Shown: positions 3,128 to 43,182, numbered from the stretch's first letter. The stretch is 58,687 nucleotides of DNA from a virus (IMGVR_UViG_2834277561_000001:1-58687); one strand, 5' to 3'. Translations and numbers: made by a program. Notes: generated by a model from the sequence alone, not told the origin.

Positions 3128-3163
3128 AAAAAAATGGGATACCACAATTAAGTGATATCCCAT
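3128..3163 (-). terminator. Terminator of the lysis/late operon
   Basis: Minus strand ATGGGATATCAC-TTAATT-GTGGTATCCCAT followed by TTTTTT. Confidence 0.8.
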
Positions 3164-3338
3164 AAATATTGTCAACTTTTAAATTTCAGATACGAATGCT
3201 GACTTCCGAGTAAATTCTAACTTACATATCTGAGTCCGTAAGTATTATAGAAATATATACTTCACCACGAAGCGTATACTGCATCTAAAATCAATTCTAA
3301 GTGATAATCCTTAGAAATCATTTAAAGTCGATTCTGGT

Positions 3339-3608: not shown

Positions 3609-4220
3609 TTAAATACCTTCTTTCTGTGAATAAATACTCCCATCAGGATAATGAATTTCTAATGCCTCAACTTCAGGTAAAAGCTTGGAATGATAGATAT
3701 CATTTCCTCCGCTTTGTTCGTAAAGCTTTCCCATCTCAATGAACGTTTTTAATCCGTCTGGAGTAACATACCCTTGGTTTATAAAGTCTTTGTGCATGCG
3801 CCATAAAGAGCTTCTAAAAGAAGCTACTGTGCGATCATTTTGAGTGTTAATAAAATCTTGCATCATCTGAGATAATTCGGTTATCTGACCGCTTAATCCT
3901 TCTTGATTTTCTTTCAATTCATCTCTAATCTGAATACTCTGTTCGTGATAACCTTTTTGTTTCCGGTACAGAGATTTTTCACGATCTTCAATTTCATTAC
4001 GAAGCTGTTTAACGGCTTTCTCAAGATCAATAATTCTTTGTTCCTGAGCTTTTTTATATAAACTAGATTTTGTTTCAAGTCCTAATATTTTCATTATTTT
4101 TTTGCCAATTGTAACAAGTGCGATAATGGTAATTGCGATATATAATAATGATACAAGAACATTTAATTCCCCTATTTTGTGAACTTGTTTTATAGCTTCA
4201 ATTCCATCCATATTACACAT
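3609..4220 (-). CDS. Membrane-anchored coiled-coil protein of the lysis cassette
   Basis: One N-terminal TM segment, coiled coil, YEQSGGN motif; sits between lysin and holin. Confidence 0.65.
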   Translation of the reverse strand: MCNMDGIEAIKQVHKIGELNVLVSLLYIAITIIALVTIGKKIMKILGLETKSSLYKKAQEQRIIDLEKAVKQLRNEIEDREKSLYRKQKGYHEQSIQIRDELKENQEGLSGQITELSQMMQDFINTQNDRTVASFRSSLWRMHKDFINQGYVTPDGLKTFIEMGKLYEQSGGNDIYHSKLLPEVEALEIHYPDGSIYSQKEGI

Positions 4221-4223
4221 CCA

Positions 4224-6007: not shown

Positions 6008-6091
6008 ATTTATAATGAAATTTTGAGATTCGAACTTGATAGCTTTAAGCTATAGAAATAGAAGATTAAAAAGATTAGAAAGGTTAGAATT

Positions 6092-17600: not shown

Positions 17601-18713
17601 TACCATCTTCTTTATAATCAGTATCTTCTTTTCCATATGGAAAAACTAATTCACCACTGTTATTAATTCCAAGCTGAGTATCCATATCATATGCCCAGAA
17701 ATCAAATCTATATCCATTATGAATTGCAGCAGCATTATCATCTATTGTATAATATTGAGCTTTATCTCCAGCTTCAGCAGCTTCAGATGTACTCATGTAA
17801 TGTTTAGCCCAATGAGGAAAAACATTCTTTGCTCGGTTGTCAATCATGCTATATCTAAGAGTAACTAAATAGAAGTATAATGTTGTTTCTTTGATGACCC
17901 AATCTCCTAAATGAGCAACGAAATCTTCGTCAGAAGAAGTAACTATAAATTCATAGAAATCACGCCATATTTGACGGTTATTTGTACGAATCTTTTCCTT
18001 CTCTTCATCTGTAGAAATAGCAGAACCATCTTTAGAGTCACCACAACAATCGTATCTAAATTCAAATGATCCGTCCCAATTATTGTAAAGATTGTCATAA
18101 GCAGTATTTCCTGCTTTCCATTCTGCTTTTGTAATTGGATATTTTGGTGTTCCGTCTGGATTTGTTACTCCTGTCTGGAATGCAGAGTTTGGAAGAGTAT
18201 TATCTGAAATCTCAATACAAAATTCCTTCATATCATCTGGATCATAAGCTCTTGTAACATCTGTCTTTTTGGAATCACCCATATTGCCTAAACTATAGAA
18301 ATGCCAATCAGTATCTTGGAATTCTCTATGAGTAGATACGTCTGGATCGTTCTCTTTAAGGAAGATTACACAGTTTACGAACTCCATAGAGTTCTTTACT
18401 TTTGGATCTCTTTTAGTTCCTGGACTTGTATATGGAATAAAATCATTAAATCTCTTTTGTCCTAATGCGTTTGTAGCCATATTAGAACTTGCTACATTCA
18501 CCTTGAAATTCCACCAGTTATTAGGCACTGAATTTCTCGTAAGAGATATTTTACCTGTTCCATCAGTAGTTTTACTTCCGTCTCCAAGTTCAAGAATCGT
18601 TTTATAATTAGGATCTAATTTGATGTTACTATTAACCTGATGCTCACCATCAAAACAACAGATGACATCGATATTTCTTGCAGCAAAACCATATTCATTA
18701 GATGTTGTACCTT
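14659..18713 (-). CDS. Giant tail protein, exon 2 (CotH-kinase-like domain, leucine-rich repeats, C-terminal lectin/DUF6273-like region)
   Basis: Frame is open from 18711 (GTTSNEYGFAARN...) into the 1289-aa ORF; DNRAKN and YDMDT.LG.NNSG motifs; LEELDVQNCPNL LRRs. Confidence 0.82.
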
Positions 18714-19618
18714 CAAATTTTGTTATCCTATAGGCTTTTTATCCTATAGTTCTTATACTTGCATAATATAAAATACGTTAAATTAAGCTATTTCCCTAAA
18801 CCATTGTCTGCCATATGCAGTTTTGCGTTTTCCATTAAGGACACAGCTAATAGAGGCAGAAGCAGAACTTTTTCCATTAGTAACCGCTCTTGTGGCTTCG
18901 CGAATACCAGAAAAATGCTATATATTTCCATCTTTATCTATTGAATAGACAGGGTACCTACGTTTCTGTGCCACACGCTCTTTGTGTGTTCCATAATTAT
19001 TGTTATATTTGGCAGTACACCATTCAAGATTTTCAACACAATTGTTTGTTTTATCTTCATCTTTATGATTTACTTCTGGGAAATTGTTAGGATTAGGAAG
19101 AAATGCTTTTGCGACTAATCTATGAACAGCTAAATGAACACGATTTTCTCTTTTTCTTCCATCTAAAGAAATGTCAATTTGAAGATAACCTTTTGTACAA
19201 GGATAGGGTTTCATGATTTTCCCATTCATTTTATCTACTTTATAGCTTTTTATTCTTCCTAAATTACTTACTTCATATCCAAGATAGCCATCTATTGGCT
19301 TCCATATTTCGTCCATATATTCACCTACTTTCATTTTTATAATAAAAAAGACTTAATATGCAAAATTAAGTCTATTAAACGTATTTTATTTATTTTGTAT
19401 AAGTTCAGCATATCTTTTTACCATAACTACAATATGTAGTTTTAGGTATTGCGAACTCGTGGATGCATTATATTCTCATAATAGAGTGTCAGCATCTATG
19501 CGTTGCATGTGACTATACTTTTAAATATAGCCTTCCATTCGGATTAGCATTTCAGCCTTCCCGATTTCTTTCGCAATTCTTATATATATGTTTCCATATA
19601 TAAGGGGCAAGGATGTTC
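18714..19618 (-). mobile_element. Group I intron (IA-like), 905 nt, HNH gene in the P9 region
   Basis: IGS CCTTGCCCC (19604-19612) complementary to the ligated junction GGGGC|AAGG; terminal G at 18714; P3 TTGCGAA/TTCGCAA, P4 TCGG/CCGA, P6 GGCTATA/TATAGTC, P7 GCATA/TATGC, P8 TACC/GGTA; removal restores HAGQGTTS in frame. Confidence 0.9.
18783..19334 (-). pseudogene. NUMOD4-HNH homing endonuclease with an in-frame TAG before its C-terminal NUMOD1-like DNA-binding domain
   Basis: EIWKPI.GY..YEVSNLGRIKS, VHRLVAKAF.PNP, VNHKDEDKTNN.V.NLEW; after TAG (18918-18920) the frame continues HFSGIREATR...ISCVLNGKRKTAYGRQW to TAA at 18783. Confidence 0.82.
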
Positions 19619-22600
19619 GCCCCGCGTGATAACAATTAGTAAACTTCCAGTTATCAAGAACTGGATCACCATTTGTATAAATACACTGCATTGATGTATC
19701 TTTTACAAAATCCTTTTTATCATTGGTAAAGTGTGGTGCTTCAATTTTAATAATTCTCAAATCCGGACATGCTTTTGCAACTGAATCAGGTGTAAGAGAA
19801 TTGTTTTCATCATAGATCTGATTTCGTTCATAACGGGCAATCATATCGTCAGAGTCTCTTGCATCAGCTATAAAGTTACTCAAAATATCCGTATCAGTCA
19901 GAGAAGCGGAGTAAGCTTTCATTCTATAAACATGAACATCACAATCATCAGAACCAATAGTAATCGGAACAGGAGTGTACTGATATAATCTATGAACGTC
20001 ATTATATATCATTGGTCTTCCGCCAACACCATCTTCATATGTCATTACAATAGATGTCGCCCCTTCAGTTTTGGTGTCGAGAGCATTGATATTAAATTCG
20101 TATTCAATGATATCTTCTTCACTGTATGGGAAATACAAGCTGCTCGTAGAGGAATAAATGTTTGCTTCATGCACATTCATCTCAAGACCAACTTTATCAT
20201 CCATAGCCGGAATACAAGATAAGAATGTAGTAGAAGCGTTACGTACATTTGTAGTTTTAAATACAATCTTAAATTCGGAACCCGTCTGTTTTGGATCGGT
20301 TCCAAAAAGATTATAATTAATTTTAGCTCTTGTACCTGCTTTTACACAGAAGTACTGATTACCATCAGAGTCAATCTGATATCCACCGTTTGACCAGTCA
20401 AAATTATCAGATACTGTCATTGCAATATTTGTATGTGTTTTATCTTTCCAAAGTCTATTTTCATCACTATTTGAATAGCCTGTTGGATTAAAATCAAATT
20501 CAAGATTTGCAGTAACTGGTTCAACATCAATATCCAATTTTTCGATATTTGCTTTTAAGATTTTAGTGACCTTTCGGCAGGAGATAGTTAAATCATGATT
20601 TCCAACATCAGATGATTTATAACTCCATGTTTGTACGGTACGTTTAACAGATAATGTAGATACTGTATTTCCATCTACAGCTAATTTTACTGTTGCAGGA
20701 TTATGGTCTGGATCATATACAACATAAGGAATATTTGTCGCATGATACTGCTGGGTTGTAAATTCTTGCATTGAACAACCAATAATAGGAGTCCTGTCAT
20801 CCGGATTGACCCATATAATATCTTTAATAATTGTCTCTGACTGAATGTCCTGGTTATTTACAGTAGCAGTCATATATACTTTAAGCAGGTGCGCTCCGTG
20901 AGATTGTTTTGTAAGAACATAGGATAACTGTCTACCAGAAGCAGATGTATTTACAGAATCTAACTCATTGCCATCAAGAATAAAGTGTACTGTTTTATTA
21001 ATATTACCGTATGGAGTATATCTGAATGAGACTTCATCAGAATAGAAGAGAGTATCATCGAAAGTGCTTTCAAGTTTAAAATCAACAATTGTAATTGTCC
21101 AAGTTTTTGTTGAAAGAGTACCAACGCTGTCAGTAATTGATAATCTGATAGAGTTTGTACCGGCTTTGAGAAATTCAGTAAGATCAATACTGTTTTTGCC
21201 CTGACCAACTGTAAGAGTAGAAACCGTTGTATTGTCTATTTTCCAAACCGCTGTACCAATACCTGTTGAATCACCAACATTATCAACTGATGACCAGGTA
21301 TATTCAATAACAGCTTTATTACCCAATAAGAAAATGGCATCAGCTGGAGTAATACGTTCAATTGTCATTGTAGAAGTAGTAGTTCCACCACCGCCTCCAC
21401 CTTGAATTGTAAATATTTTAATGGTTTCTCCATTTTCTTTCCAGTAGAAAATATTATCAGTATAATCGACATCATATTTAGTGGATGCCGGATTTTCTTC
21501 TAATTTTTTAACCCTTCCTTCCAGAGTATCAAAATTCGTTCCTAAACTATCAACAGCTTCTTTATTTCCGTCAACAGTCTGTTTCATATTTGCTACTGAG
21601 TTAGTAGCTTGCGACACATCTTCTTTAATTTGTGGAATCTCAGTTTTTTTTACTTCATTCAAAGAAGATGTTAAGTCGGTAATTTTCTGTTCATCCTCGG
21701 TTTGATGCTCTTGAATAGACTGAATACTATTGTTAATAGGAGTAATGTTGGCAGTTACCCATTCAGTAGAAGGATTAATAGAACCAATATTAACATCAAA
21801 CATTTTAGCAGAACCATTCATAAATGTAAGTTGTCCAGCTCCATCAACAGCAGTGTATGTAACAGACAGGTTTGCCAGCCCATTAATAGTAACAGAGGAT
21901 AACTCATCTTTTCCAGCTGCCTTACTTGTATCTTTTAATGTCAACTTCCCTGATTTATTATCATATTCCGCTTTAAGGTGTGATAAACTGCTAATAGAAT
22001 TAATAGCTGTATTAATTGGTTTAAGACTATCTGAAATTTTAGTATCTGTCTGAGTCTTTGTGTAATAATTTTTCAATGATGTTGTGTTGATAAAATTATC
22101 GTTAACCTTTGAAATTACATCGCTAGCAATTGAGTCAACATTGATCTTAGCAGCAGAATTAGCAGCTTCCTGTGCATATGATTGCGCATTATTTACATAT
22201 TCAATAATTCTTGCCTCAAATGATGTCATCCATCCTCTATCAGACACTTCCACAAAATCGTCCTGGTCAATGCCTTGCATCACATTGATTTTTCCATTTG
22301 GTCGAGTAGTCCAAGCATATTTCAAATCGCCGACCTGCCCAACTACACGGATTTCAAAAATATAATCTCCTGGTTTTATTGTAACTGACTCGTCAATAAG
22401 CCATCCAAATCTGATATAAGAACTATTTCTTTTTACATTAATTACATTATATTCGTGTGGAGTGCCTCCTGTAAGTTTGTCACTGCAACGAATAGAAATA
22501 GTCATTTCTCTGGCGGATAAATCAATACCGTCGTAATACCTTGGCATTTGGAATGGAATATATTGACTATTCTTTTCCTGTGTAATATTGATCTGACTCG

Positions 22601-29624: not shown

Positions 29625-32600
29625 TTATCTATTTTTACCGCTTGATCGACTCAAGTCTTTTCGCATCCGCTTCGTAAACATCGGATACATGATATCAGAC
29701 AGTTCCTTGCCAAGATGTTTCAAATCCATGTCGTTACTGATACTATCAACAGTAATTTCAATATTCGGGCTGAATGTGATATCTTGATTTGTCATCTGTG
29801 TATTTGGCAGAATTCCCTGTGGATTTGCCAACTTCGTGAACTGATCCATTGTCGCAAGAGACGGTTTCAACAGTTCTGTGAATTTTTCAGTCATTACGGA
29901 TTCTCCAGGACGCGCAAAAATCATTCCTGTGTCATCACTTCGGCTCAGATATTCGCCATAAATAGAGTTGCTATCCATCGGAATTACACTATTGATAACA
30001 CCACCATTGGAGAATCCATAGCCTTTAAGCTCGTTGAAGATTTTATCTTTCCATGATTTCTTCCATTTGCTGTATGGTTGTTTGATGATGTAATTATGTC
30101 CAAGGATTCTCGCCACTTCTTCAAAATCCTTTTGCCGGACATTCTTACCTTTTTTCCAAAAATAAGTATAGAAATCATGATGTTTCTCTTTTAACTTTGT
30201 TTTGTCTACATCACCACCAACCCCTTTATACCATTGTTGTAATGCAGACTTTTTCGCATTGTATTCTTTCATGCTTTCAGATAGATTATTATTTAGCTGC
30301 GCATTTTGCTGTCCAGATGTTCCCGATTCAGAAAGATCATTTGCGCTTGGATTAGCATTACTGTAATCTTTTGTGGCATTTGCCCCAGTACTGGAAGAAT
30401 TAGCTGCATTCTTAGTATACTGGTCTGCCTGATTCTTATCAGTACGCTGATTGTCAACACCCTCACCAGAAGCAGTGACCGAAGGACTTACCTTCTTTAC
30501 TTCTTCGCTGGTCAGTTTCGCTTTTGTGATAATCTCATCAAAGGATTCAGAAACGGAATATCCTGTATTCTTTATGATTTCTTCAATCTGCTCATAAGCA
30601 TCGGAATAAGATTTCTGTGTTTCCTTGAGCATATTGTCGATGATGGACTTCTGCAAGTCAGAATTGGATTTTACCGCCTGAGTAGTCTTATCCAACGTAT
30701 CGTTTGCCTGATCCGACAGGTTTTCGTAACCCTTTTCTTCCATCTCGATCTGATGCTGATATTTTGTATCGGCAAGGTCATCTTCTTTATCTTTCAGGTC
30801 GGCTTTAAGCTGTTCAAGACGGGCTTTGGCAGACGCATTTGTTGTTCCTTCGAGGGCTGCAATCTGTGCTTTTATTGTATCGATATCTTTGTTTTTACTC
30901 TTAAGCGTTTTATCGTAATCATAATAATCTTTTTTCGCAGTAAGAGCTGTTTTTCGTTTATTGATATTTTCCTGTAGATAATCGTTCTCTTTGGAAATCT
31001 GGTCAAGATATACCTGCATCAAACTCTGCTGATAAGAATAGATTGCCTTGGATGATTTCTGGATATCGCTGTTGATATCTTTGATGTACTGTTTGTACTG
31101 GTCTTCAGTAAGTAGATCGTTGTCATACATTTGCTGAATAGTTTCCAATTGTGCTTTATCATTCGCAAGCTGCTGTTTTGTGGCTTCGGAAGCTTTATTC
31201 AGCAACGCAATATTGGCAAGTCCCTGTTTGGTCATGGAACCGTCATCATTCATAAATGTATCGGAATCCATCATGTCGCGGAGATTATCAAGGTCTGTTA
31301 CAAGAAGTTCAATCGTATCCCTTGCATCTTCAAGCGGTTTGAACCGAAGCTCTACGAGAGATTCCTTCAAGTCCGCGGTATCATTGTTTGCTTCCAAGAT
31401 ATTCTTATTAACATCCGCAAGCTGCTTCGCATATTCCTGATATTTCGGAGAATCGACACTTACTTTCGCCATTTCGGTCAGAATGAGGTCTTTCTGATGT
31501 TGATATGCAAGAATAGTCTTGTCGTTGACTTTCATCGCCTCTACATAATCATTCTCCGTTACGTTTCCATAATTACTATGCTTATAGCTGTTTTTCTCCT
31601 TAAAATCACGGTAAGAGGAGAGAGCATCGGACGCACGGGTGTATTTATCTACTTCATTCTCCGCCATAGTCATGTTCAGCTCGGCAAGCTTATTCGTGTT
31701 TTCGGCAGTTGTCTTCTCATTCTCATAGAATGTATTTTTCAACTCTTCAATCTGAGAAAGAGTTTCCTTTGCAAATGTAGAATCAGCACCATATTTTTTA
31801 ACAATATTACCATATTCTTTAGTCAGGGCGGAAATCTCATCCTTATAATAAGTCCGCATCTGGTTCCCATTGTCTACTTTTTGCTGAACTGCATTATAGT
31901 AGTCAGAGCCGATCACCTGGGATGCTCCGATTTCTTCGCGCCAAGAATTCAAACCGTCAAGAGAATCATTCGCTTTGGAATATACACCAATCAGGGCATC
32001 ATAACGGGTCGTGATGTTGTCCAGTTTCTGCTTATATAGTTCCTTTTCCTTGGTCTTCAGTTCCTCAATCTGCTTTTTACAGTTTAGGATTTTGTCGTAC
32101 CATTTCTGGTATGCATCAACTTTCTGTTTATTGACCGCGGAAAGACTCTCTATATTAACAGTACCGTTCTGGACTTTCTTCTTCAGCTTGGAAGATAAGC
32201 CGATTTTTTTCGCATACTGGTCGGATTTCTTCGTATACATCTTCTCGGCTTGCCGATACTTGCTGATTAAAGTTTCAGTAGTAGAAATAGAGTTATTAGC
32301 ATAACTGTTCTGCTTGTTATAGTCATAAGTATTGTCAGATTTCGCCTTGTTCAGGTCAATGATACCTTGAAGCTTTGTAACAACACGCTCAAACCAGTCT
32401 TTTACATTCTTCCACGGGTCTGTCCATTTACTAGAGTCTTTAGCTGCTTTGGATACATCTTTCGCAGCTTTATCGACTGCTTTGGTGGTTTTATCTGTGG
32501 ATTTGGTATTGCCATATTTAGGACTAGCAAGACCACCTTGAAATTTTAATGTCGCACCACCAACATCAGCATGAGCCGGAGCAATAGATTTAAGTGAACC

Positions 32601-35600
32601 ATGAGCAAAAGCACGAGCAGTTCCCGTAGCTTTACCATGATTAATTAAATCAGAAGTTTGTCTAGCATTTAAGACAATATCTCCACGTTTTAATGCTTGA
32701 GTATGCATTCCAGGAGGAAGCATAAGCCATCTATCTCCACGAATAATAGATTCTTGTCCTAACTCGTTCACAAGTGCAGTTTCATTATGATCTAATGCGA
32801 TTTTACCATTGGCATACGCACTACCATAATTCACTGTATTATAATAGGTAGATCCCGAATAAATGGTTCCTGTGGCATGTGCCGGAGAAGAAGCAGGAGA
32901 ATTCATTGTTCCAGAAGCTTTATGTGGTTGAGCAACTGATCCTAATGTATAATTAATTGTTCCCGTCGCAACTATTCCAGTCGGAACAGCAACACTACCC
33001 AAATCATAATTAATTGTACCTGTAGATATCTCACCATCAGCTTTCTGTACAGTTCCTTTTTCATAGTTGATCGTTCCTTCAGATGTTTCACCGTCAGCCT
33101 TTTCTACATTACCCTTCTTATAATCAATCGTTCCCGAAGAGGTATTACCCGTAGTGGCATCTTCGACTTCAGCTTTGTAATAAACCACTCCTCCCTGTAT
33201 ATCTGGAGTGTCAGGGGATTCAACTTCTGATTTAAAAGTGACAGGAGTTCCTTCTATAGCAGATAAATCGGGTTCTTGAGGTTGTTCTACTTCTGATGGA
33301 ATTTCTACAGGAGTTGATTCTATATTTGAAGTATCGGGTTCTTGAGGCTGTTCTACTTCTGATGGAATTTCAACCTTCTCCCCAGTAATAGCATTAATCA
33401 ATGCAACAAACTGAGTAGAATCCATGGCAACAGTTAAGTCAACTTGCTCGCCACTCATTTCACGTATTTCATCACGAACTTGATCTACCTGAGATGCGTC
33501 ACATCCAACAGTAGTCATTAATTCTTGATCAGAAAGAGTAAGCAATTCTTGAAAAGAATTTCCATTTTCAACCGCAGTCTGAATTTGGACTTGAATCTTT
33601 TGCGCTTCTAATGAAGAAATTTCCGTGTCTAAAGTATTAACCGCATCTTCACCATCAACAGCTACGTCTACATTTACTTTCGCATCTTGTAATTCTTTGA
33701 TTTTAGAATCAATCTGATCAAGAGACATAGTTGTTTTATCATAGTCAAAATCAATTCCTGATAAAGTAGAAGAAGTTGATGAGGATTTTTCTTTAAGCTG
33801 TTCTTGTGCGGTTTTTCCATCTCCGGTAACGTTTAAATTATCGTCAACGGTAATTCCTGCGGCTGCGGCTTTCTCTTTTGCCATGTTTCTATAAGAATCC
33901 GCAAGAGCTTTATTATTTGCATTTTCAGCTGCCTGAACCTGCTCCTGGATGTTCTTGATTTCATCCGCGGCGGTTTTTATTTTCTTTTGTTGTGCTTCAG
34001 AACCTAGATTATGCTCGGCATAATAATCCATGCTTTCTTGTAACCCGTCAATCTGTTGCTTATACTTCGCAACCTCGTCCTCGGCGGCTTTTATCGCAGT
34101 GGTATTATATATCGGGTCTTTACCATCTTTTTGCGCCTGGGCATTTTCTTCATTCATCTGATCCAGACGTGCTTTAGCCTCAGACCAGTTCTTAGTTGCT
34201 TCGGTTGCCTTTAAAATACCATCCTGCATATCGGAGATAACAGTAGTAGTAGCACCGTAATCTTCGGCACGTCCAAACAATGCTTCTACAACAGGTGTTC
34301 CTGTGCCAAGTTTCTGTGCGACTTCTCCGAGATCATGAGTATTAAGTTCCCATGACTGTGTTTCTTCGTTGAAACTTGCCATTGCCTGTCCAGCGGCATC
34401 AGTTTTGGTACTAAGGTCTTCGAAGAAATGAACAAGACCGGATTCATCAGATGTGAGGTATCTTGCGGCTTTCGCGTAGTTTTCGGCAAAGTTGAAAGGA
34501 TCAGTTGCTCCAGAAGGAGATATCATTTTTGCAAATGATTTAAAATCATCTGTTCCGATTTCACCAGCGTCCCACGCTTTCTTTGCGGTATCTAATCCGG
34601 AAACCATTGACAAATATTTGTCGCCTGAGTTTTCGGTTTGTGTTGCACGTTGCCATTCGGCATAATCGGAGAATAGTTGTTTCTGCTGTTGATACTGGGC
34701 GTAGTATTGAGACTGAGCCTGTTGCATCTCCGCAAGTTGTTCTTGGGCGGTTTTTAAATTATCCTGCGCATCTGTGTATTCGTCAGTACCCTTTTTAACC
34801 GTTTCAAGAGCTTTTGATTGCTCGTTAATCACATCATTTTGTTTTTGGATTGATTCTGCAAAATCCTTTTCCTTAATCTGATGCTGAATATCCAGCAAAT
34901 CTTCAAGTCTATCATTATCCAGTTTTACACCCTTGGATGTATTTGTGAATAATGCATTTAAATCATAGTCTTTCAGCTCGTCAGAACTATCAATTATACT
35001 TTGAAGTCCATTTTTCAGTGTGGAAATAGAATCAGCTGTTAATCCAGTATCGGACATTGATTCAGAAATAGCGGAAGAGATATTAGAATACTGTGTCTGA
35101 ATATCTTTTACATTACCCTGTAGACCAGATAATAAATTATCTCCGGAAACAGTATTTTTAGTTTTTTCAATTGCCGCCTGTAATTCGGCAAAAGTTCCCG
35201 AAAAATCATCCTTGGCAACCAAATCATATGCAATCTGTCTATCTTCACCTGTAAGATTTTCAATTTGACTAGTGGCATTTTCTAATCCTGGAGCTTTTTT
35301 GATGGCATCCAGCTGTCTTTGATTTTCGTCAATAATAGAAGTTAAACCGAAATTATCTTTCCATTTTTGTTGTAAATCCTTATCATTAGGAAACGCCTTT
35401 TCTAATGCAGTATTTACCTGTTTCGCATAATCGACAGCAGTTGTTTTCGCCTGATCAATATCAAAAACATCCGCTAATGCTTTTTGGGAATCTTTTGAAA
35501 GGTTAGATAATGGCGTAATAAACTGATCATACATGAACTGTACAGCATCGCCATCATATTCTTTGGACAATTTCGAAATATCTATATTACCAAGATTTTT

Positions 35601-36986
35601 CAATAAAGCATTTTGAATATTAGAATCCAATTTATCAAAAGAATCTGTAGTCTGTAAATATTGTCCAAGAGAATCAGACATGCTTTTCCATTGATCAGCT
35701 ATAAGTGCAGAAGTCGATGCTGATTTATTCGCCGCCTCTGTTGCCTGAGTTGCAAATTTACTCGATAAATCATTTGAAAAAGTATCTAGTTGTTTTGTGA
35801 CATCATCAATTTGCTGTGATGTAGCTTCCATTACTTCAAAAGATGTTCTCTGCGTAACATTGCCAGATTTATCTACATCGGTATAAGAATAAGGTTCGTA
35901 GTTTTTTATACCAGATTTTTTTAAGGCTTGCTCAATCTTACTATAATATTCCGCATATAAATCATCGCCAAGAACAGCAGAATCTATATCTATAGTGCTG
36001 GCATTTTTTAAATTGTTAGATAGTCCAGATACTTTTAATTGGTCTATATTTGCTTGCGCTTTTTCTTGTTGCTTATTGTAACCATCTACTTGTTTTTGGT
36101 ATTTTGCTACTTGTGTAGTAACCCCTTTAAACTGATCTTGTAACTCTAGCCCAATATTTACATGAGATGACAACATTTGAGCGTCATATAAGGATTGTAT
36201 ACTTTGTGCAGCAGTTTTGGCATTCGTTCCAAGATTCAACATAGCATTGCCTTGAGAATCGATGCCAGACTGAAGCTGTGGATATAATGACGCTAATTGA
36301 TTAGAAAGATCTAAATATGTCTGATAATCATCGTCAGTCAAAGACATATTTGCATTAGTTTTAGAATTTACACCTTTAGCTAATTCCGCGTATTTATCTG
36401 CAACAGAAGAAATCGCATCACTAGTATTTGTAATCTGAGTTTCTGTTTTATTAAAGGACTGTCCTAGAGTATTTAAAGTAGTTTTACCATTGGAGAACTC
36501 ATCAAAAGTATTTTTGATAGTGCTTTGTGCTTCTTGACCTTTATCAATCGCAATTTGGTCACGATTAATCCAATCACTTATACCTTGAACTGCAAGACTA
36601 ATTCCGGTTCCAATAAGCATATCAAGTCCCGCATTGCCTATTGATGCAAGTGCGGTTTTACCAAATGATTTTACACCAGACTTGAGATCGTCCATAAAGG
36701 TGGTTGTTTTAACTGCCTGTTCTCCACCTTTTACAAGTTCATCGTTGAAATCTTTTAAATTGATTCTTGCCCCACGGATTTCTTTTGAGGTATCTTTGTA
36801 CTTATCAGCATACTTATCTAAATTTTTTCCATAAGCTCGTTTAAACTCATCACTAATATCTAAGCCTTTATATAATTCATCTTTTAAATTAGCGCCTTCA
36901 CCTGCATTTGCTAAATTGCCTAATACAGATTCTAATGTGTTTTTAGTATTTTTTCTGTTCTGATAATTTTGGAGTATTCCACTTAT
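29625..36986 (-). CDS. Tape measure protein, exon 2
   Basis: Frame is open upstream of the track ATG (36695) to the 3' splice site (ATA AGT GGA...); long coiled coil, ALVNELG.E, GFSNGG; 2454 codons including stop. Confidence 0.88.
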   Translation of the reverse strand: MSGILQNYQNRKNTKNTLESVLGNLANAGEGANLKDELYKGLDISDEFKRAYGKNLDKYADKYKDTSKEIRGARINLKDFNDELVKGGEQAVKTTTFMDDLKSGVKSFGKTALASIGNAGLDMLIGTGISLAVQGISDWINRDQIAIDKGQEAQSTIKNTFDEFSNGKTTLNTLGQSFNKTETQITNTSDAISSVADKYAELAKGVNSKTNANMSLTDDDYQTYLDLSNQLASLYPQLQSGIDSQGNAMLNLGTNAKTAAQSIQSLYDAQMLSSHVNIGLELQDQFKGVTTQVAKYQKQVDGYNKQQEKAQANIDQLKVSGLSNNLKNASTIDIDSAVLGDDLYAEYYSKIEQALKKSGIKNYEPYSYTDVDKSGNVTQRTSFEVMEATSQQIDDVTKQLDTFSNDLSSKFATQATEAANKSASTSALIADQWKSMSDSLGQYLQTTDSFDKLDSNIQNALLKNLGNIDISKLSKEYDGDAVQFMYDQFITPLSNLSKDSQKALADVFDIDQAKTTAVDYAKQVNTALEKAFPNDKDLQQKWKDNFGLTSIIDENQRQLDAIKKAPGLENATSQIENLTGEDRQIAYDLVAKDDFSGTFAELQAAIEKTKNTVSGDNLLSGLQGNVKDIQTQYSNISSAISESMSDTGLTADSISTLKNGLQSIIDSSDELKDYDLNALFTNTSKGVKLDNDRLEDLLDIQHQIKEKDFAESIQKQNDVINEQSKALETVKKGTDEYTDAQDNLKTAQEQLAEMQQAQSQYYAQYQQQKQLFSDYAEWQRATQTENSGDKYLSMVSGLDTAKKAWDAGEIGTDDFKSFAKMISPSGATDPFNFAENYAKAARYLTSDESGLVHFFEDLSTKTDAAGQAMASFNEETQSWELNTHDLGEVAQKLGTGTPVVEALFGRAEDYGATTTVISDMQDGILKATEATKNWSEAKARLDQMNEENAQAQKDGKDPIYNTTAIKAAEDEVAKYKQQIDGLQESMDYYAEHNLGSEAQQKKIKTAADEIKNIQEQVQAAENANNKALADSYRNMAKEKAAAAGITVDDNLNVTGDGKTAQEQLKEKSSSTSSTLSGIDFDYDKTTMSLDQIDSKIKELQDAKVNVDVAVDGEDAVNTLDTEISSLEAQKIQVQIQTAVENGNSFQELLTLSDQELMTTVGCDASQVDQVRDEIREMSGEQVDLTVAMDSTQFVALINAITGEKVEIPSEVEQPQEPDTSNIESTPVEIPSEVEQPQEPDLSAIEGTPVTFKSEVESPDTPDIQGGVVYYKAEVEDATTGNTSSGTIDYKKGNVEKADGETSEGTINYEKGTVQKADGEISTGTINYDLGSVAVPTGIVATGTINYTLGSVAQPHKASGTMNSPASSPAHATGTIYSGSTYYNTVNYGSAYANGKIALDHNETALVNELGQESIIRGDRWLMLPPGMHTQALKRGDIVLNARQTSDLINHGKATGTARAFAHGSLKSIAPAHADVGGATLKFQGGLASPKYGNTKSTDKTTKAVDKAAKDVSKAAKDSSKWTDPWKNVKDWFERVVTKLQGIIDLNKAKSDNTYDYNKQNSYANNSISTTETLISKYRQAEKMYTKKSDQYAKKIGLSSKLKKKVQNGTVNIESLSAVNKQKVDAYQKWYDKILNCKKQIEELKTKEKELYKQKLDNITTRYDALIGVYSKANDSLDGLNSWREEIGASQVIGSDYYNAVQQKVDNGNQMRTYYKDEISALTKEYGNIVKKYGADSTFAKETLSQIEELKNTFYENEKTTAENTNKLAELNMTMAENEVDKYTRASDALSSYRDFKEKNSYKHSNYGNVTENDYVEAMKVNDKTILAYQHQKDLILTEMAKVSVDSPKYQEYAKQLADVNKNILEANNDTADLKESLVELRFKPLEDARDTIELLVTDLDNLRDMMDSDTFMNDDGSMTKQGLANIALLNKASEATKQQLANDKAQLETIQQMYDNDLLTEDQYKQYIKDINSDIQKSSKAIYSYQQSLMQVYLDQISKENDYLQENINKRKTALTAKKDYYDYDKTLKSKNKDIDTIKAQIAALEGTTNASAKARLEQLKADLKDKEDDLADTKYQHQIEMEEKGYENLSDQANDTLDKTTQAVKSNSDLQKSIIDNMLKETQKSYSDAYEQIEEIIKNTGYSVSESFDEIITKAKLTSEEVKKVSPSVTASGEGVDNQRTDKNQADQYTKNAANSSSTGANATKDYSNANPSANDLSESGTSGQQNAQLNNNLSESMKEYNAKKSALQQWYKGVGGDVDKTKLKEKHHDFYTYFWKKGKNVRQKDFEEVARILGHNYIIKQPYSKWKKSWKDKIFNELKGYGFSNGGVINSVIPMDSNSIYGEYLSRSDDTGMIFARPGESVMTEKFTELLKPSLATMDQFTKLANPQGILPNTQMTNQDITFSPNIEITVDSISNDMDLKHLGKELSDIMYPMFTKRMRKDLSRSSGKNR
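33267..33371. repeat. Tandem 66-bp-period repeat in TMP (VEIPSEVEQPQEPD x2)
   Basis: atcgggttcttgaggYtgttctacttctgatggaatttc occurs twice; four GTI(N/D)Y repeats lie nearby at ~32950-33145. Confidence 0.8.
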
Positions 36987-37067
36987 CTGCGAAAAATATT
37001 TTTTGGATAATATTGTATACAGAAAAAAACTTATATGCTAAAATAAAAAGAAAAAGGATGTGATTAC

Positions 37068-37220
37068 ATGACGGCGGTAGTATTAGTAGTCCTTATATTA
37101 ATTTTTGGAACTTTAGCAGAAGTAGGAAAATCAGGTTCTACAGATTTAGGTAGTATGTTACTCGTTATTGGAGTACCAGTTGGTATCTTTTTAATTCTTG
37201 CTTTACTCGGCGTAAGATAA
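37068..37220 (+). CDS. 50-aa two-TM membrane protein (intron cargo; absent from the ORF track)
   Basis: AAAGGATGTG SD, ATG, MTAVVLVVLILIFGTLAEVGKSGSTDLGSMLLVIGVPVGIFLILALLGVR*; TGcTAAAAT extended -10 upstream. Confidence 0.65.
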   Translation: MTAVVLVVLILIFGTLAEVGKSGSTDLGSMLLVIGVPVGIFLILALLGVR

Positions 37221-37262
37221 GACTGATGTCCTACAAAATGTAGTCATATAAAGGAGATATAT

Positions 37263-37841
37263 ATGAATATAAATGAAAAATGCCCAAACTGTAGACAAAA
37301 AGGGCATCTCAGCTATCTTAACATATATGGGCAAACTATTATAAAATGTATGACATGTGGCTCATTATACAATCAAGATGGTAGTAAATATGTTTTTCCA
37401 AAAACTTTCTGTTATATTTGCCCGAAATGTGGAAACGATTATGTCTACCCTGAGAATTATGCCCACACTTGTAAAAAATGTGGTTATCCGAATATGATTA
37501 AAACAGAATTCACAGGAGATGAACATACGAAACTTGCAATGGACAACGACGAAAAGTTTGAGAAATTTTTGTCCCATCTTCGAGAAAAATATGTTGTTGA
37601 TAATCCGGATTTAGATAAAGAACTCTATCAAGAAACATTGGATAAGGAATTCCAAGACTCTTTGTTGAATTCTGTAGAAGAAGAGGAGTATGAAGAACCA
37701 AAGATACATTGCCCGAAATGTAACTCGACTAATATTACAACTGGTCAGCGCGGGTATTCATTCTGGACTGGATTTCTCGGTTCCGGCAAAACAATGAACC
37801 GTTGTGGTAATTGCGGCTATAAATGGACACCTGGAAAATAA
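37263..37841 (+). CDS. Multi zinc-ribbon protein (intron cargo)
   Basis: AAGGAG SD; three CxxC...CxxC pairs; C-terminal CPKC.STNI...RGYS..TG..GS.K..NRC.NCGYKW seen in prophage morons. Confidence 0.8.
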
Positions 37842-38144
37842 TAAATAGTAATAGAGAAGGAGAGTAGTGATACTCTCCTTAAATATATAACGAGAGCATG
37901 ACAAAACCAACTCTCGTTTCAATGGTGCTTATAAAGTTGTCTTCGTGGCAAAACCTCTATTCAACCTAATACTTATAAATTCTAGCAAAACTATTTTTAT
38001 AAGTATAAGCATCACTATCGGAAATCGTTCACGATAATTTTTTATATATGGAGTGCCCGAATCTGCCGATATGATCCCCTCATCAAGTGAACCTATTTTA
38101 AATGTATAATACCAGGAGAGTTACAACTCTCTCTTTTTTTATAC

Positions 38145-38172
38145 AAAAAAAGAACAGCCCATGAAGCTGTTC
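38145..38172 (-). terminator. Minus-strand intrinsic terminator inside the intron
   Basis: GAACAGC-TTCATGG-GCTGTTC-TTTTTTT; a plus-strand terminator lies back-to-back at 38115-38140. Confidence 0.75.
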
Positions 38173-38400
38173 CAAAAAACTCAACCGTTTTTTGCTAGTA
38201 TAAGCAAAATATTCGAATTTATATTATTTCATAACAATATCCAGACAAATATCTCATCAATATACTAGAAATCGTTGTGAGCCTATAAAAATGCGTCCAT
38301 TTTCAAGCTCAAAAAAGAATACTATTGATATTGAGAAATATCAAACACTACGCAGTGACAGGACACAAACCGTGTATACGACGGGATAATATTTCTACTT
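38145..38400 (-). ncRNA. Candidate ~250-nt structured RNA downstream of the PemK-like gene (possible RNA antitoxin)
   Basis: Promoter TTGACA-17-TATATT (38435-38407) inside the last codons of the toxin gene; no ORF; several hairpins; ends at a terminator. Confidence 0.45.
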
Positions 38401-39204
38401 ATGTTTAATATATCCTTTTCCCCTATTATTGTCAACATGTTTCTTTTTATTTTTCGGTTCTGATTTTAGTCTTTGTTGTTCTAATATGTTTATTCTGAAT
38501 TTTAAATCATGAACCTGTTTCTCAAGTTCTTTATTTCTTTTTTTATATTCATCATTGTTCTTTATAAGAGATTGATGTCTTTGATGAATAGTAGGATACA
38601 TGATTTGAAATACCTGCATTTGTATATCAGACAAAACAGTATCTGAAATTGTGGTAATCTCTTTATCTATTCTAGCGCGTGAAATAAATTTTGCGTCATT
38701 GATAAGTAAAACACAATCTTTAGGGAATCCATCACTCATCAATCCTTGCCTGTATTTTTTATTCCCGTTTTTATTATTTGTAGGATGATAACTTTGTGGA
38801 AAAATATCATCACCACTTCGAATAGGAACTACTAAAAATTTATTGTCTTTAACACCAATGCATAATCCATGGTGATAATATCCCAACTCTCCGGCAAATG
38901 TATTTCCATAATCAATATAGTATGTATGTCCTATTTTTGGAATAATTTGTTTTTTATTATCATCGTAAGATACTGTCGTATGACATTTTCTCATCCAATT
39001 CATATCACTGAATAGTATAGATGCTGCGTCATACGCATTTTGTCTTTTTAACCCCTGAATGTAATTATGCATATACTGAACAGCTGCAAGCATAATTACA
39101 GAATATTTGATTGACTTATTTGTTTTATTCTTTTCGATATGCTCTGTATATCTCTTTATGTTTGTGACATCACTCCAAATCATATTCTCATGATTCATTT
39201 GCAT
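38395..39204 (-). CDS. PemK/MazF-fold endoribonuclease toxin-like protein with C-terminal coiled coil (intron cargo)
   Basis: IGHTYYIDYG..F.GELGYYHHGLCI...LVVPI.S and ..IS..RI pattern match MazF/PemK; own promoter TTGACG-17-CATAAT (39269-39241). Confidence 0.68.
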   Translation of the reverse strand: MQMNHENMIWSDVTNIKRYTEHIEKNKTNKSIKYSVIMLAAVQYMHNYIQGLKRQNAYDAASILFSDMNWMRKCHTTVSYDDNKKQIIPKIGHTYYIDYGNTFAGELGYYHHGLCIGVKDNKFLVVPIRSGDDIFPQSYHPTNNKNGNKKYRQGLMSDGFPKDCVLLINDAKFISRARIDKEITTISDTVLSDIQMQVFQIMYPTIHQRHQSLIKNNDEYKKRNKELEKQVHDLKFRINILEQQRLKSEPKNKKKHVDNNRGKGYIKHK

Positions 39205-39370
39205 ATTTTAGTTCACCATCCAATATTGTGTATTAATATTATTATGTGACAAAATATGACAAACGTCAATTCAGAACGTATGTATGGAAATAAGATAATC
39301 TAATGATTTTTGTTGACAAAACATTAATTTCATCGTATGTTGAGTATAATATATTGAAGGAGATATTAGT

Positions 39371-39634
39371 ATGAACAAAAAAGAAATTAGCAGTAATATA
39401 TCACTTGTCTATCGTGATATAGAAAATACATATTCTGATTCAAAATCTATTTTGGCTGATATTATGAAACATGCAAATGACAATTTTGAAGAAATTGAAA
39501 ATATATATCGTCTTGTTGCAATGATATCTTTTTACAAAAATAATTACAGTCAGAGAGGCGGCGAAATATTATTTGAAGAATTCTCCAAAAATATTCCGGA
39601 ATTTAGACGTATCTATAAAGTTTTTGCTTCATAA
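39371..39634 (+). CDS. Hypothetical protein (intron cargo)
   Basis: AAGGAG SD, promoter TTGACA-17-TATGTT (39313-39341), terminator GAGAGC..GCTCTC-T tract at 39664-39687. Confidence 0.7.
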   Translation: MNKKEISSNISLVYRDIENTYSDSKSILADIMKHANDNFEEIENIYRLVAMISFYKNNYSQRGGEILFEEFSKNIPEFRRIYKVFAS

Positions 39635-39703
39635 ATTCATATTTTGAATTAATACTAAATAATGAGAGCTATTTGCTCTCCTTTTTTGTTTGCAAGATTT
39701 ATC

Positions 39704-39732
39704 TTGACAATATGACACATGTGTCATAATAT
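39704..39732 (+). promoter_or_regulatory. Promoter with a perfect 18-bp palindromic operator
   Basis: TTGACA (39704) -17- TAATAT; TATGACACATGTGTCATA at 39711-39728. Confidence 0.75.
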
Positions 39733-39763
39733 ATGACTATAAAGGCATAAAGGAGGAACATAA

Positions 39764-40102
39764 ATGAGTATTAATGTCCAAAATATTGATTTATCTAAAA
39801 TGAAAAAATGGACTCCAGAATCAATTCTAAAAAAGAAACGAATAGAATCTGGTTTTACACAAAAACAAGTTGCCGATATCTTAGGAATATCTTTGCGACA
39901 GTGGCAGAGATATGAAAAAGATGACGATCTGTCATGCGTCACATTTCAAATGGGTGTAAATATTTGTGAACTTCTCAATATTGACGTGTATACTTATGTC
40001 ACTCCATTGAATGATATATTAGAACACAATCTTGCTACTCCTGGTGAAGTAGAAGAAAGTACCAAAAGAGAAATCATAAATAAATTTAAGGGAGAAATGT
40101 GA
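39764..40102 (+). CDS. XRE-family helix-turn-helix regulator (intron cargo)
   Basis: LKKKRIESGFTQKQVADILGISLRQWQRYE; AAGGAGG SD. Confidence 0.88.
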   Translation: MSINVQNIDLSKMKKWTPESILKKKRIESGFTQKQVADILGISLRQWQRYEKDDDLSCVTFQMGVNICELLNIDVYTYVTPLNDILEHNLATPGEVEESTKREIINKFKGEM

Positions 40103-40368
40103 TTGTGAATAATTTTCGATTCCATTATGCAAGGGCAATAATTACAGTTCCAAAAACCGATGATATTGAAATGAACCGTGAAATCAGAAGAAGAATTAAT
40201 CTATTTGAAAAAGACAATAGAATGTATATAGATCTCATGAAATTTTTGCTAGATAACCAAATTCCTGTTAGAGCAATACCTGAAGATTATGCCAATGAAG
40301 ATCAAATAGATTATGTCTCACGACTTAATACTGCATATAAAAACCTAGGATTATTCTATAATTGCTAA
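40099..40368 (+). CDS. Hypothetical protein coupled to the XRE gene (intron cargo)
   Basis: GTGA start/stop overlap, 89 aa. Confidence 0.65.
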   Translation: MIVNNFRFHYARAIITVPKTDDIEMNREIRRRINLFEKDNRMYIDLMKFLLDNQIPVRAIPEDYANEDQIDYVSRLNTAYKNLGLFYNC

Positions 40369-40379
40369 TTATATAATTT

Positions 40380-41052
40380 AGAAGTGGAAGATACTTGTTC
40401 TTCCAAAAAAATATTGTGTTGACTCGCGAACATTACTATAAGCAATGACGAGTAATATAATGCAGAAAATATGTTCTGCTTTCAATTACAACTATTTTTT
40501 CTGCTCATATTTTAATTCTCCGCAGTGGAGATATCCGAAGTTGCGTCGGATTGGTATTCACTCTATATTCGCACATCGCAACCATACCAATTTGCAATGC
40601 TCCAAAAATTGCTGACAGAAGGGTAGTATATAGAAACTATCCCTGAATGATTCGGGCATCTGTCTTCCCTATCGCTAGAGTGCATCTTCGTGATTCCCGA
40701 TGAAACCACGCTTTCGTTACGCTCGTTGAGGTCGGTATCCTTTCTTATTAGAACGAAACCCTACCTGCGGATTACCTCGTGTTTTGAATTATTCCCTTAC
40801 CTCATGCTTTCACATTCGCCACCTATTCCTATTAAGAATAGGTTTGAGATCAAAACCATGTGACGCAGACTTTTGAACTGCGAAGGTTCCCCGTTCCCAC
40901 CATTCATAGTAGGAGAGTAACACATTACTGTTACTCCATATTAGAAAGTCACTATAGAAGTCCTTGCTTTTCAGCTCGTACACGTTACCGTTAAACTTCT
41001 AAGCGGCATAAGTCATTTGAAAAATGCATGGGGCGAATTCCCATGTACTCTT
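40380..41052 (-). ncRNA. Group I ribozyme core and P9 extension of the TMP intron
   Basis: P1, P3 CTTTC/GAAAG, P4 CGG/CCG, long P5 extension, P6 GGT/ACC, P7 GAG/CTC, P8 CGTGGTTTC/GGAATCACG; ORF-free and GC-richer than the flanks. Confidence 0.8.
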
Positions 41053-43182
41053 ACCGCTGCCTGTTTTGCCCTGGAAGATTCCAAGACCGATCGCTGCTGT
41101 ATTTAACATACCAATCGAACTTGTCAAATTTGTAAACAAATTTAATAAGTTTGTGCCACCATCTACTAATCCTTTAAACATATCAGAAGAAAACGTAGTC
41201 GTAGCCATTTTCTGAAATGCAGATTCAAACTGTTGTTGTTTAGCTTCAATAGATTCTAGCCATCTATCCTGTTCCTGTTGCGCAGAACCATCAGAATTTA
41301 ATGTGTCTTGATATGCTTTTTGAACTTGTCCAGATTGGAATCCTTGAATTAATGCAGCAATTTGGTTGCCTCTATTCTTACCTGCTAATTTTTCGAGTAA
41401 TTCCGCTCTATTTTTATCAGTCAAATCATCATAGATTTCACTGATTTCTTCCATAAGAGTATATGTATCTTTATATGTCTGCTTTGTATCATCAGTAAAC
41501 AGACTAATGCCGCCAGGTGTTTTTGCCGTTTTTGTTAAGTCAGCAATTGCACCTGAAAGTTCTTCTGTGTCATTGGTGTATGAATCGGTTTCTTCGTCAT
41601 AACCTCTTACCCTCATGGCGAGGATCTTTAGTGCATTTCCAGCTTCTGGTGCACTCTGCGTGATTTCTGACATTCCTGTAAGCATAGCTAGAGAATGACC
41701 AAGGTCGTTTCCTGCGGTTGCTAAAGAAGATGCCGAATTGGATAGTCCCTCACCTAAATCTGCACTTGAAGTTGCGAAATTATTACCCAGAATATTTAAT
41801 TGATCAATTATAGATTCTGCATCTGATGCTTGAATATTAAACGCCTTCATAGCAGTAACCATATCGGAAACTGCTGTATTGTCACTAACTTCACCAACAT
41901 TTGCATACATTGAACTTAATTTGGAAAGTTGCTCAGAATCATCTAATGAGTATCCAAGTTTTGACCATTCAGATGTTTGGGAAATATAGGAAGACATGCT
42001 TCTTCCTAATTTAGGTGCATTATTAGAAGCAGTATCAAGATATTTAGAATAACGAGACTGTGATTCATCCGTTACTTTATACAAATTAGTCATTGCTGAA
42101 TCAACGTCTTTGACCGAATTAATTACTTTAGACGGAACTTCCATTATTACATTTTGAATTGCACCATAAATTCCTGCGAACTGTCCGATTTGCTTAAAAG
42201 CTCGCTTGAATTCATCTATCCCAGATTTCCCTGTTAAACCTTCGGCAGAAATACGGGATTGTAAATTTTTGAACGCGGTATCAAGAGTTGCCTTTTCTTC
42301 GACAGTAGTAACTTGTCGATACTGTTGCTCAAGTTCTTTTAATGTTGCACCATATCTTTTTACAGCCTTACTGTTTGATTCATAATAGGCAGCAACTTTA
42401 TTTGCAGATTGTTCCGCCACGCCCAGTCCAAGAGTTTTTGATGTTTCGTCTTTAATCTGAGAAAATACATTCTTGAATGATGTTTCTGCTTTTTGTATTT
42501 TCTGAATGGTATTATCTAAAGATTCATCATCAAGTATTGAAGTTCCTGATTTATGATCTTTTAAAGCAACTAGGGATGATGAAAATTCCTGCATTAACCC
42601 ATTGGCTTTTTCAATATTAGGTGTTGACTGACCTGCATAGGATTCCATCTGCTTTCTCATTCGTGAAAGGATAGCATCGCCTTTTTCAGAGTCTATATAT
42701 GTTTCTAAAGAACTGTTTTGCTTAGATGCAGATTGTTCCGCTTCACGTCGAGCTTTTTCTGTGGCTTTTTGAATTTCTTTGTTTGCTCGTTCTTGTTCTT
42801 TTGCCACGGCAGAGTAATAGCCTTGTGCATCTTTTTTTGCATCATTTTCAGATAAATCTGGATAAATTTTCCCTAATTCATCAGCAGTATCTTTGATATC
42901 TTTTCTCATTTTTTGCTGTGTTTTAGAAAATTCAGAAGCACTCGAAATACTGGCTTTCCCAATTCCAGAATTTATCCCTTGTGAAATTTGCGTTCCAATA
43001 TTTTGTCCAGCTTTTTTATACTGAGAGGAATTTCCTGAAATTAACTTATCTAATCCAGAAAGGCCACTCGTATCAAAATCTATTTTTACGGACTTTCCTT
43101 GAAGAGATTTGATTTTTTGCTCAATCTCATCTATCTTTTCTTGCCCATGGGGTACTATGTTGACATCTACATTAAATTCCAA
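41053..43182 (-). CDS. Tape measure protein, exon 1 (TP901-type TMP core)
   Basis: VDSAMTNLYKVTD, WSKLGYSL, GNNFATSSADLGEGL, GNALKI.AMR.RG, LLEKLAGKNRGN; 710 codons from TTG to the 5' splice site. Confidence 0.9.

Follow-up and report, generated by a model that had tools for sequence, protein, structure and literature searches.

A conserved, probably group I-type RNA with a variable gene cargo interrupts a phage tape measure protein gene

The viral sequence IMGVR_UViG_2834277561_000001:1-58687 (58,687 nucleotides (nt); hereafter the window, meaning the whole stretch of DNA that was analysed), which comes from a gut prophage, carries on its minus strand a tape measure protein (TMP) gene that is split in two by an insert of 4066 nt at 36987..41052. 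This insert is probably a group I-type self-splicing intron whose catalytic core would lie in the first ~445 nt, with a 3.6-kb cargo looped out at the tip of a peripheral stem that follows P9. The locus combines a conserved and covarying RNA beside exon 1, a 3' end that recurs in otherwise unrelated contexts, a cargo that changes between close relatives, and a protein that is continuous in homologues; from these we infer splicing and catalysis, a precursor transcribed as one continuous RNA, and a role of the insert as a harbour for accessory genes.

The TMP gene is interrupted between 41053 and 41052 and again between 36987 and 36986. Exon 1 (41053..43182, -) encodes 710 amino acids (aa) from a TTG start, matches Pfam PF10145 PhageMin_Tail (E 8e-22) and ends in ...GKTGSG, while exon 2 (29628..36986, -) encodes 2453 aa and begins with AUAAGU, i.e. 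Ile-Ser. The insert starts with AAGAGU and ends with UCGCAG, and its removal joins the halves in frame (710 + 2453 = 3163 aa; GKTGSG^ISGILQ, with ^ marking a splice junction here and below), so that the coordinates agree exactly with a preliminary description of this DNA, which had placed two TMP halves 4066 nt apart and predicted a joined product of ~3163 aa. In the window DNA the predicted join brings GGCAGCGGU to AUAAGUGGA, and the junction peptide of the joined protein would be TGSGISGILQNYQNR. Continued into the insert, the exon 1 frame meets a stop after 17 codons. The exon 2 frame spans 37037 to 29625, with its first in-frame ATG, GTG or TTG at 36695; the lack of a start at the beginning of exon 2, which had also been pointed out, therefore extends over 97 codons, yet the protein is conserved from codon 1.

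Both halves belong to one TMP. The C-terminal part of exon 1 matches 604 longer TMPs of 1300-3700 aa, and of the best 120 among these 604, 78 have a match to exon 2 as well, located further downstream in the protein. Eight uninterrupted homologues align straight over the junction (e.g. P0042, ...GIGLFK--TGSGLLTLSK...), and the protein similarity of exon 2 to two related loci, L012 and L007, starts at residue 1 with 47% identity. A search for related loci with the N-terminus of exon 2 returned no relatives. One TMP that is 63% identical to exon 1 (P0004) was set aside as a candidate empty site, because its divergence begins before the junction and it thus yielded no empty-site sequence.

Directly after exon 1 lies a conserved structured RNA of 445 nt (40608..41052, -; intron nt 1 corresponds to window position 41052) that comprises P1, P1a, P1b, P2, P3, Ha, Hb, P4, P5 with its extension, P6, P7, P8 and P9. 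Among phage records, blastn gave a single match, MT835469, with 80% identity over query positions 419-893 and an abrupt onset of nucleotide homology at CAGCGGT^AAGAGTACATGGG. Pattern scans of IMG/VR and ENA located the element at the homologous TMP site in about 55 gut-phage contigs, with nucleotide homology starting exactly at CAGCGGT^AAGAG and extending over ~445-480 nt. The cores fall into a window-like lineage (L030, L036 and L046, ~97% identical to the window), lineage A (most loci, ~79% identical to the window) and lineage C (L026, L027, L031 and L058, ~75% identical to the window), and between lineages the flanking TMP exons share only 26-47% protein identity. The survey of relatives proposed in the preliminary description thus recovered, always at this TMP site, a conserved core combined with sharply variable cargo, the inserts measuring 3315-7942 nt. 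No second copy of the core was found in the 201-kb record from which the window derives, two core-derived patterns gave 0 matches in 185,579 species genomes, and a more permissive gapped pattern returned the same set from IMG/VR with no additional lineages. Two further loci, L015 and L022, have only a 17-mer in common with the core and were discarded as chance matches.

To locate the 3' end, exon 2 protein alignments were projected onto DNA from seven different 3' contexts. Six of these have mutually unrelated surrounding sequence; L062 shares the 3' region of L007/L012. In all seven the insert ends in UCGYAG and exon 2 begins with RUA: UCGCAG^AUA in the window, UCGUAG^GUA in lineage A and L030, and UCGUAG^AUA in L007/L012, L045, L061 and L062. 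The terminal G claimed from the window alone is thus conserved at every projected junction. The segment UCGY is complementary to an invariant GCGA after P7, which fits a P9.0 pairing, and RUA pairs with UAU of the guide sequence described below, which fits P10, so that a terminal G positioned by P9.0 and P10, as expected of group I introns, can be recognised; in the window, UCGC-A-G at 36987..36992 (-) would provide the 3' strand of P9.0, one unpaired A and the terminal G at 36987. The first codon of exon 2 is always AUA or GUA and never another Ile or Val codon, which points to a constraint at the RNA level. We regard this conserved 3' end as the strongest independent evidence.

A second element links this distant end to the core. 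The segment directly after P9, UUUUUGGA (nt 445-452; 40601..40608, -), is complementary to UCCAAAAA (37000..37007, -), and equivalent pairs occur in L030 (UUUUGGA/UCCAAAA), lineage C (AUUUGGA/UCCAAAU), lineage A (UUGGGA/UCCCAA), L007 (AAUUGGGAAUU/AAUUCCCAAU) and L045 (UUGGGAA/UUCCCAA), the 3' strand always ending 7-18 nt upstream of UCGY. This closing stem covaries between lineages, with UUUGGA/UCCAAA in some and UUGGGA/UCCCAA in others, a U-A to G-C exchange. It would turn the cargo (nt 453-4045; 37008..40600) into a terminal loop between the core and the last 21 nt of the insert, and place the 3' splice site beside the core.

At the 5' splice site, the last 6 nt of exon 1, AGCGGU (41058..41053, -), would form the 5' strand of P1 with an internal guide sequence at intron nt 40-51, ACUUAUGCCGCU (ACUUAU-GCCGCU; 41013..41002, -), predicted to pair with the end of exon 1 in P1 and with the start of exon 2 in P10. 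The guide is complementary to the joined exon ends AGCGGU^AUAAGU with a U·G at the cut, the arrangement found in P1 of group I introns at the cleavage site, and provides 6 base pairs (bp) of P10 in the window. This 12-nt complementarity to both exon ends, already noted in the preliminary description, holds under a strict test (U·G at the cut plus 11 Watson-Crick pairs), in which 0 of 400 shuffles reached the pattern. Under liberal rules, with G·U allowed anywhere and all in-frame junctions considered, the result was not significant, as 12/12 pairs were also reached in 91 of 300 shuffles; pairing alone is therefore only suggestive and the junction needs independent support. The junction is indeed fixed independently, by the point at which nucleotide homology starts and by the protein alignments, which project onto the same point. 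Since both AGCGGU and the guide are invariant in the 33 distinct sequences, guide/exon covariation is uninformative. Directly after the guide sequence the exon 1 frame always runs into a stop, UAG or, in lineage A, UGA (window 40999..41001, -; L001 about 6082-6084), at which ribosomes would halt at the P1/P2 boundary; unspliced RNA would yield an N-terminal TMP fragment of 727 aa whose tail, KSTW(E/D)..MTYAA, is conserved. In the loop of P1, the P1a hairpin CAUGGG..CCCAUG is followed by CAUUUUUC (window 41027..41045, -; L001 6038-6055; L012 1721-1738), and this hairpin with its U-run scores as an intrinsic terminator in all lineages. P1a could attenuate transcription at the intron start, in competition with P1b.

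A pseudoknotted secondary structure was drawn by hand and counted on the 33 distinct sequences (alignment A3). In this model 97.1% of cells pair, 31 pairs show changes on both sides (0-3 in slid controls), and this level was reached by 0 of 500 shuffles. The minimum free energy (MFE) fold of the single sequence and RNAalifold agree on the helix set (MFE z-score -3.06), and the MFE fold recovers most nested helices unaided; pseudoknotted pairings, P3 included, are beyond what a fold of this type can represent. P5, P6, P8 and P9 covary in the alignment.

In the model, P1 (exon positions -6 to -1 and nt 1-6, with nt 40-51) holds the hairpins P1a and P1b in its loop, and P2 (53-58/92-97) bears side hairpins capped by GUAA and GAAA. 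The 5' strand of P3 (105-109/338-342), CUUUC at 40944..40948 (-), pairs with GAAAG inside P7, creating the pseudoknot, and both strands are invariant in all lineages. The hairpins Ha (116-139) and Hb (140-157) are followed by P4 (160-163/282-285) and P5 (167-170/275-278), around which the A-rich joining segments J4/5 (GAA) and J5/4 (UAA) are placed; an extension of P5 (171-274) forms a three-way junction with a GAAA loop, and P6 (287-324) leads through J6/7 (CAAC) to P7 (329-334/370-375, GAGCGU/GCACUC). The two strands of P7, the P3' strand GAAAG (338-342), the P8 hairpin (344-363) and the 6-nt J8/7 (364-369, GAAGAU) make up the candidate catalytic centre (40678..40724, -). Downstream follow the invariant J7/9 GCGA (nt 378-381; 40672..40675, -), the proposed P9.0 partner of the 3'-terminal UCGC, then P9 and P9a (389-439) and a small crossing helix (384-386/397-399). 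J8/7 with the 3' strand of P7 (AAGAU-GCACUC) resembles the classical S element, AAGAUAUAGUCC. P7 itself opens with a G-C and an A-U pair, the combination seen at the guanosine site of well-studied introns. All core elements of the group I topology can be drawn in this way, and membership of group I is probable on this model. A different placement, with GUUCAAAAGUCUGCGUCAC as the R element and GUGAC/GUCAC as P3, was rejected: the P7 partner it requires, GCAG, fails to covary with CUGC/CUAU, and it would also leave J8/7 with only 2 nt and no J4/5.

Several points weigh against this assignment. Rfam found no RF00028 Intron_gpI match at the gathering score on the whole window, and at E<=10 the segments 36000-42000, 40450-41100 and 40600-40900 gave only chance-level snoRNA and sRNA matches, in searches run without a positive control on a known phage intron. 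The ribozymes of IStrons, group I ribozymes fused to an IS200/IS605 or IS607 element (PMC4227781; bioRxiv 10.1101/2023.11.20.567912), are detected with RF00028 (PMC4227781). The preliminary description had reported a recognisable P/Q/R/S core directly after exon 1, a claim that Rfam does not bear out, and the model has P7 and J8/7 at nt 329-375; an RF00028 match is a means of detection and not the definition of group I. Further, Ha and Hb sit between P3 and P4, at the position of J3/4, which is non-canonical, and an alternative drawing makes Ha/Hb the P4-P6 domain and moves the large domain into J6/7. P3, P4 and P7 never vary across the 33 sequences, so that covariation neither supports nor contradicts the catalytic core, and in other lineages P10 comprises just 3-4 pairs. 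With 3-8 kb and antisense transcription units the inserts far exceed known bacterial group I introns, and in the window the core is separated from the 3' splice site by a strong terminator on the sense strand (38151..38173). Finally, a search of IMG/VR for an intron-less allele with the ligated-junction DNA of lineage A (AACAACAGCGGT^GTAGCTCAATC; the corresponding prediction for the window lineage is GGCAGCGGT^ATAAGTGGA) gave 0 matches, and the mobility of the element is therefore presumptive.

The terminator in particular, together with promoter-like sense-strand sites downstream, would suit a trans-splicing version of the same ribozyme. A first transcript, with exon 1 and the core, would end in the cargo, and a second would start in the cargo and carry the 3' strand of the closing stem, UCGCAG and exon 2. 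Base pairing in the closing stem (8 bp), in P9.0 (4 bp) and in P10 (6 bp), about 18 bp between the two molecules, would hold them together. We consider this unlikely for the family, which does not need it: the cargo of L001 and of L012 contains no sense-strand terminator, so that transcription in one piece is plausible. Moreover, promoter-like matches are not enriched over shuffled sequences (30 vs 25.0 +/- 4.5), and we know of no natural trans-splicing group I intron in phages. For the window itself, either read-through by antitermination or trans-splicing must be assumed.

It is equally improbable that the locus does without splicing, with the TMP produced in two separate chains (one from exon 1 with 17 additional aa, the other an internally started C-terminal part), a moron hotspot lying between the two genes and the 445-nt RNA acting as a regulator or attenuator. 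Such an arrangement would agree with the missing Rfam intron match, with the terminator-like appearance of the conserved P1a hairpin and its U-run, and with an in-frame ATG at codon 8 of exon 2 in lineage A. In the window, however, the first 97 codons of exon 2 offer no start but show protein conservation right from the junction, and the homologues are single proteins across the junction point. The recurrence of UCGYAG^RUA in all lineages, the guide complementarity and the covarying closing stem would also be left unexplained.

We give no greater weight to an intron of a new or very divergent ribozyme class, self-splicing or protein-assisted, that would merely mimic group I features. The negative Rfam result, the two extra hairpins at J3/4 and the two competing P4-P6 readings would be in keeping with it, as would the ability of the 3'-terminal CGYAG to pair with the 3' strand of P5a, CUGCG/CUAUG. 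On the other hand, the U·G in P1, the guide with P10, the terminal G, the P3/P7/P8 pseudoknot, the 6-nt J8/7 (AAGAU) and the A-rich J4/5 all fit group I and no other known class, there being neither GUGYG...AY nor a domain V. Site-specific excision of the insert from DNA during lytic growth, restoring the TMP gene, is very improbable: the record is classed as a provirus and the turnover of cargo shows that the site recombines, but the window cargo encodes no recombinase, the two boundaries share no repeat, and the conserved structured RNA would have no explanation.

The cargo of the putative group I-type intron in the window comprises the six open reading frames (ORFs) listed in the preliminary description. 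They encode an 89-aa protein (40099..40368, +), an XRE repressor-like protein of 112 aa (39764..40102, +; Pfam/PHROGs), an 87-aa protein (39371..39634, +), a PemK/MazF-like protein of 269 aa (38395..39204, -; Atlas PemK clusters, 0.96), a multi-zinc-ribbon protein of 192 aa (37263..37841, +; Pfam/PHROGs) and a membrane peptide of 50 aa (37068..37220, +). The PemK-like gene has its own promoter-like site and is associated with the terminator at 38151..38173. Other loci carry DUF3800, an AIPR/AbiU-like protein (PADLOC 3e-22), an NYN nuclease domain, Bro-N/ANT and many unknowns. In line with the preliminary description, no homing endonuclease was recognised in the window, and no LAGLIDADG, GIY-YIG or HNH domain was found in any cargo examined; likewise, Pfam, PHROGs and PADLOC identified no tnpA or TnpB of the IS200/IS605 and IS607 types among 28 cargo ORFs.

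These gene sets vary between close relatives. Among lineage A phages with 99% identity in exon 2, the inserts agree over the initial 509-716 nt and the terminal 420-460 nt alone, the 2.3-2.5 kb between these ends being exchanged, and the inserts of the window and L030 have only nt 1-682 and 1716-3427 in common. Contigs from four sequencing runs (mouse gut, bovine gut, unspecified gut and wastewater) revealed deletions and replacements of modules in close relatives of the window; no contig from these four DNA runs joins across the whole insert, which is weak evidence either way. In L014, of lineage A, an unrelated transposase gene of DDE (IS4/IS5) type adjoins the NYN-domain gene (3269-4288, + in the locus), which suggests insertion sequences as one route of growth of the cargo loop. 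Beside the 3' splice site, several lineage A loci have a conserved 118-aa antisense ORF without family match (L001 9133-9486, -; also L004, L006, L008, L014 and L020), and in the window (50-aa membrane peptide and zinc ribbon) as well as in L007/L012 (206-207 aa) an antisense gene has its promoter region abutting the 3' splice site.

If the insert is such an intron, splicing might proceed as follows. Late transcription would pass through the TMP gene, the core would fold, and the exon end AGCGGU would pair with the guide GCCGCU, leaving a U·G at the cut, where a free guanosine bound by P7 would cleave the 5' splice site. After transcription has reached the far end, UUUUUGGA and UCCAAAAA would form the stem that seals off the cargo, GCGA after P7 would pair with UCGC as P9.0, and ACUUAU would pair with the exon 2 start AUAAGU as P10. 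The terminal G would then move into the guanosine site, and exon ligation would yield one TMP of 3163 aa, ...GKTGSG^ISGILQ.... The cargo genes, which have their own promoters and are mostly antisense, could be active during lysogeny with the TMP gene silent, and cassettes might be swapped by recombination between the conserved flanks. In this way an essential late gene could house toxin, repressor and defence genes, with the intron as their phenotypically neutral harbour. The preliminary description had suggested a landing pad of this kind; variable cargo of abortive-infection and defence type without an endonuclease fits that idea, of which the harbour role itself stays presumptive. Going further, and only tentatively, a divergent group I-type ribozyme may have become a dedicated "safe harbour" for an island of defence and lysogeny genes, hypervariable and as large as 8 kb, in the TMP coding sequence. 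Full-length TMP, and any tail, would then depend on transcription through or around the island and on splicing over kilobases, with antitermination or trans-splicing in lineages that have an internal terminator, such as the window, and splicing might act as a checkpoint that couples the state of the cargo to virion assembly.

The closest known systems are IStrons (CdISt1, BcISt1 and relatives). Like these, the TMP insert has its ribozyme core at the 5' end of a long gene-carrying insert with a distant 3' splice site, lacks a homing endonuclease, lies in frame in a protein gene of Bacillota and has sequence specificity only in the 5' flank. It differs in having no tnpA/tnpB and in its cargo, which amounts to 3-8 kb of unrelated, swappable and mostly antisense genes with their own promoters, and all its copies occupy one site in one gene family. 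The IStron ribozyme is of IA2 type with P7.1 and P7.2 and is inserted after a T-rich pentanucleotide (PMC4227781), whereas the 5' flank of the TMP insert is AGCGGU and our model has neither P7.1 nor P7.2 and only 1 nt between P3' and P8. Short phage group I introns are known in tail and capsid genes (PMC3706429 for a Cluster J mycobacteriophage; PMC11878797 for Bastillevirinae; PMC2504315). With phage group I introns the TMP insert has in common the in-frame interruption of an essential phage gene, the U·G in P1, the terminal G, a stop codon met in frame soon after the intron begins, and a loop that is open-ended and can accommodate genes. Familiar phage examples, from structural and replication genes and with or without a homing endonuclease, include T4 td, nrdB and nrdD and Twort orf142. 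Known ones measure 0.2-1.5 kb and contain at most one endonuclease ORF in sense direction, whereas the TMP insert spans 3.3-7.9 kb with several transcription units on both strands; neither an endonuclease nor the empty alleles that mark mobile introns with a homing endonuclease were found for it. Organellar trans-spliced and fragmented group I introns demonstrate that base pairing alone can bring a 3' splice site to the core across a long or broken loop. Those introns are discontinuous in DNA, whereas the DNA of the TMP insert is continuous, which makes cis-splicing the simpler reading. The conserved flanks and hypervariable abortive-infection, toxin and repressor cassettes recall prophage hotspots (P2/P4, bioRxiv 10.1101/2021.01.21.427644), but those lie between genes, whereas the TMP insert lies inside an essential coding sequence and would be harmless only through RNA splicing.

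Full-text literature searches returned no description of a phage intron with several defence or lysogeny genes as cargo. If splicing is confirmed, no bacterial or phage family of group I-type introns known to us would come near these inserts in size, and they would be the first to carry, in place of a homing endonuclease or transposon, a changing payload of genes for toxins, repressors and anti-phage defence. A ribozyme could then render an essential coding sequence neutral ground for the insertion of accessory genes, which would make the locus a novel type of defence or moron hotspot. Since Rfam is blind to this RNA and standard annotation calls two truncated TMP genes, similar elements may be widely overlooked. 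The family would further offer a natural system for how a 3' splice site is located across 3-8 kb, and the 445-nt core with its 21-nt tail is a candidate compact scaffold for large inserts.

Elsewhere in the window, a candidate second group I intron (18714-19618) gave no group I match with Rfam at E<=10 on 18400..19900. Within the conserved core, two further sequence relationships were observed. The 5' strand of P5a with its flank (40878..40884, -) reads UUCGCAG, or UUCAUAG in lineage A, and nearly repeats the 3' motif at 36987..36993, so that this strand and the 3' splice motif (UUCGCAG, AUCGUAG) are both able to pair with the P5a 3' strand CUGCG/CUAUG; the near-repeat may be an alternative pairing, a decoy or chance. 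In addition, GUGA just 5' of P3 (40949..40952, -) is complementary to UCAC in the P5 extension (40860..40863, -), with a G·U in lineage C and disruption in 3 of the 33 sequences, and may represent a tertiary contact.

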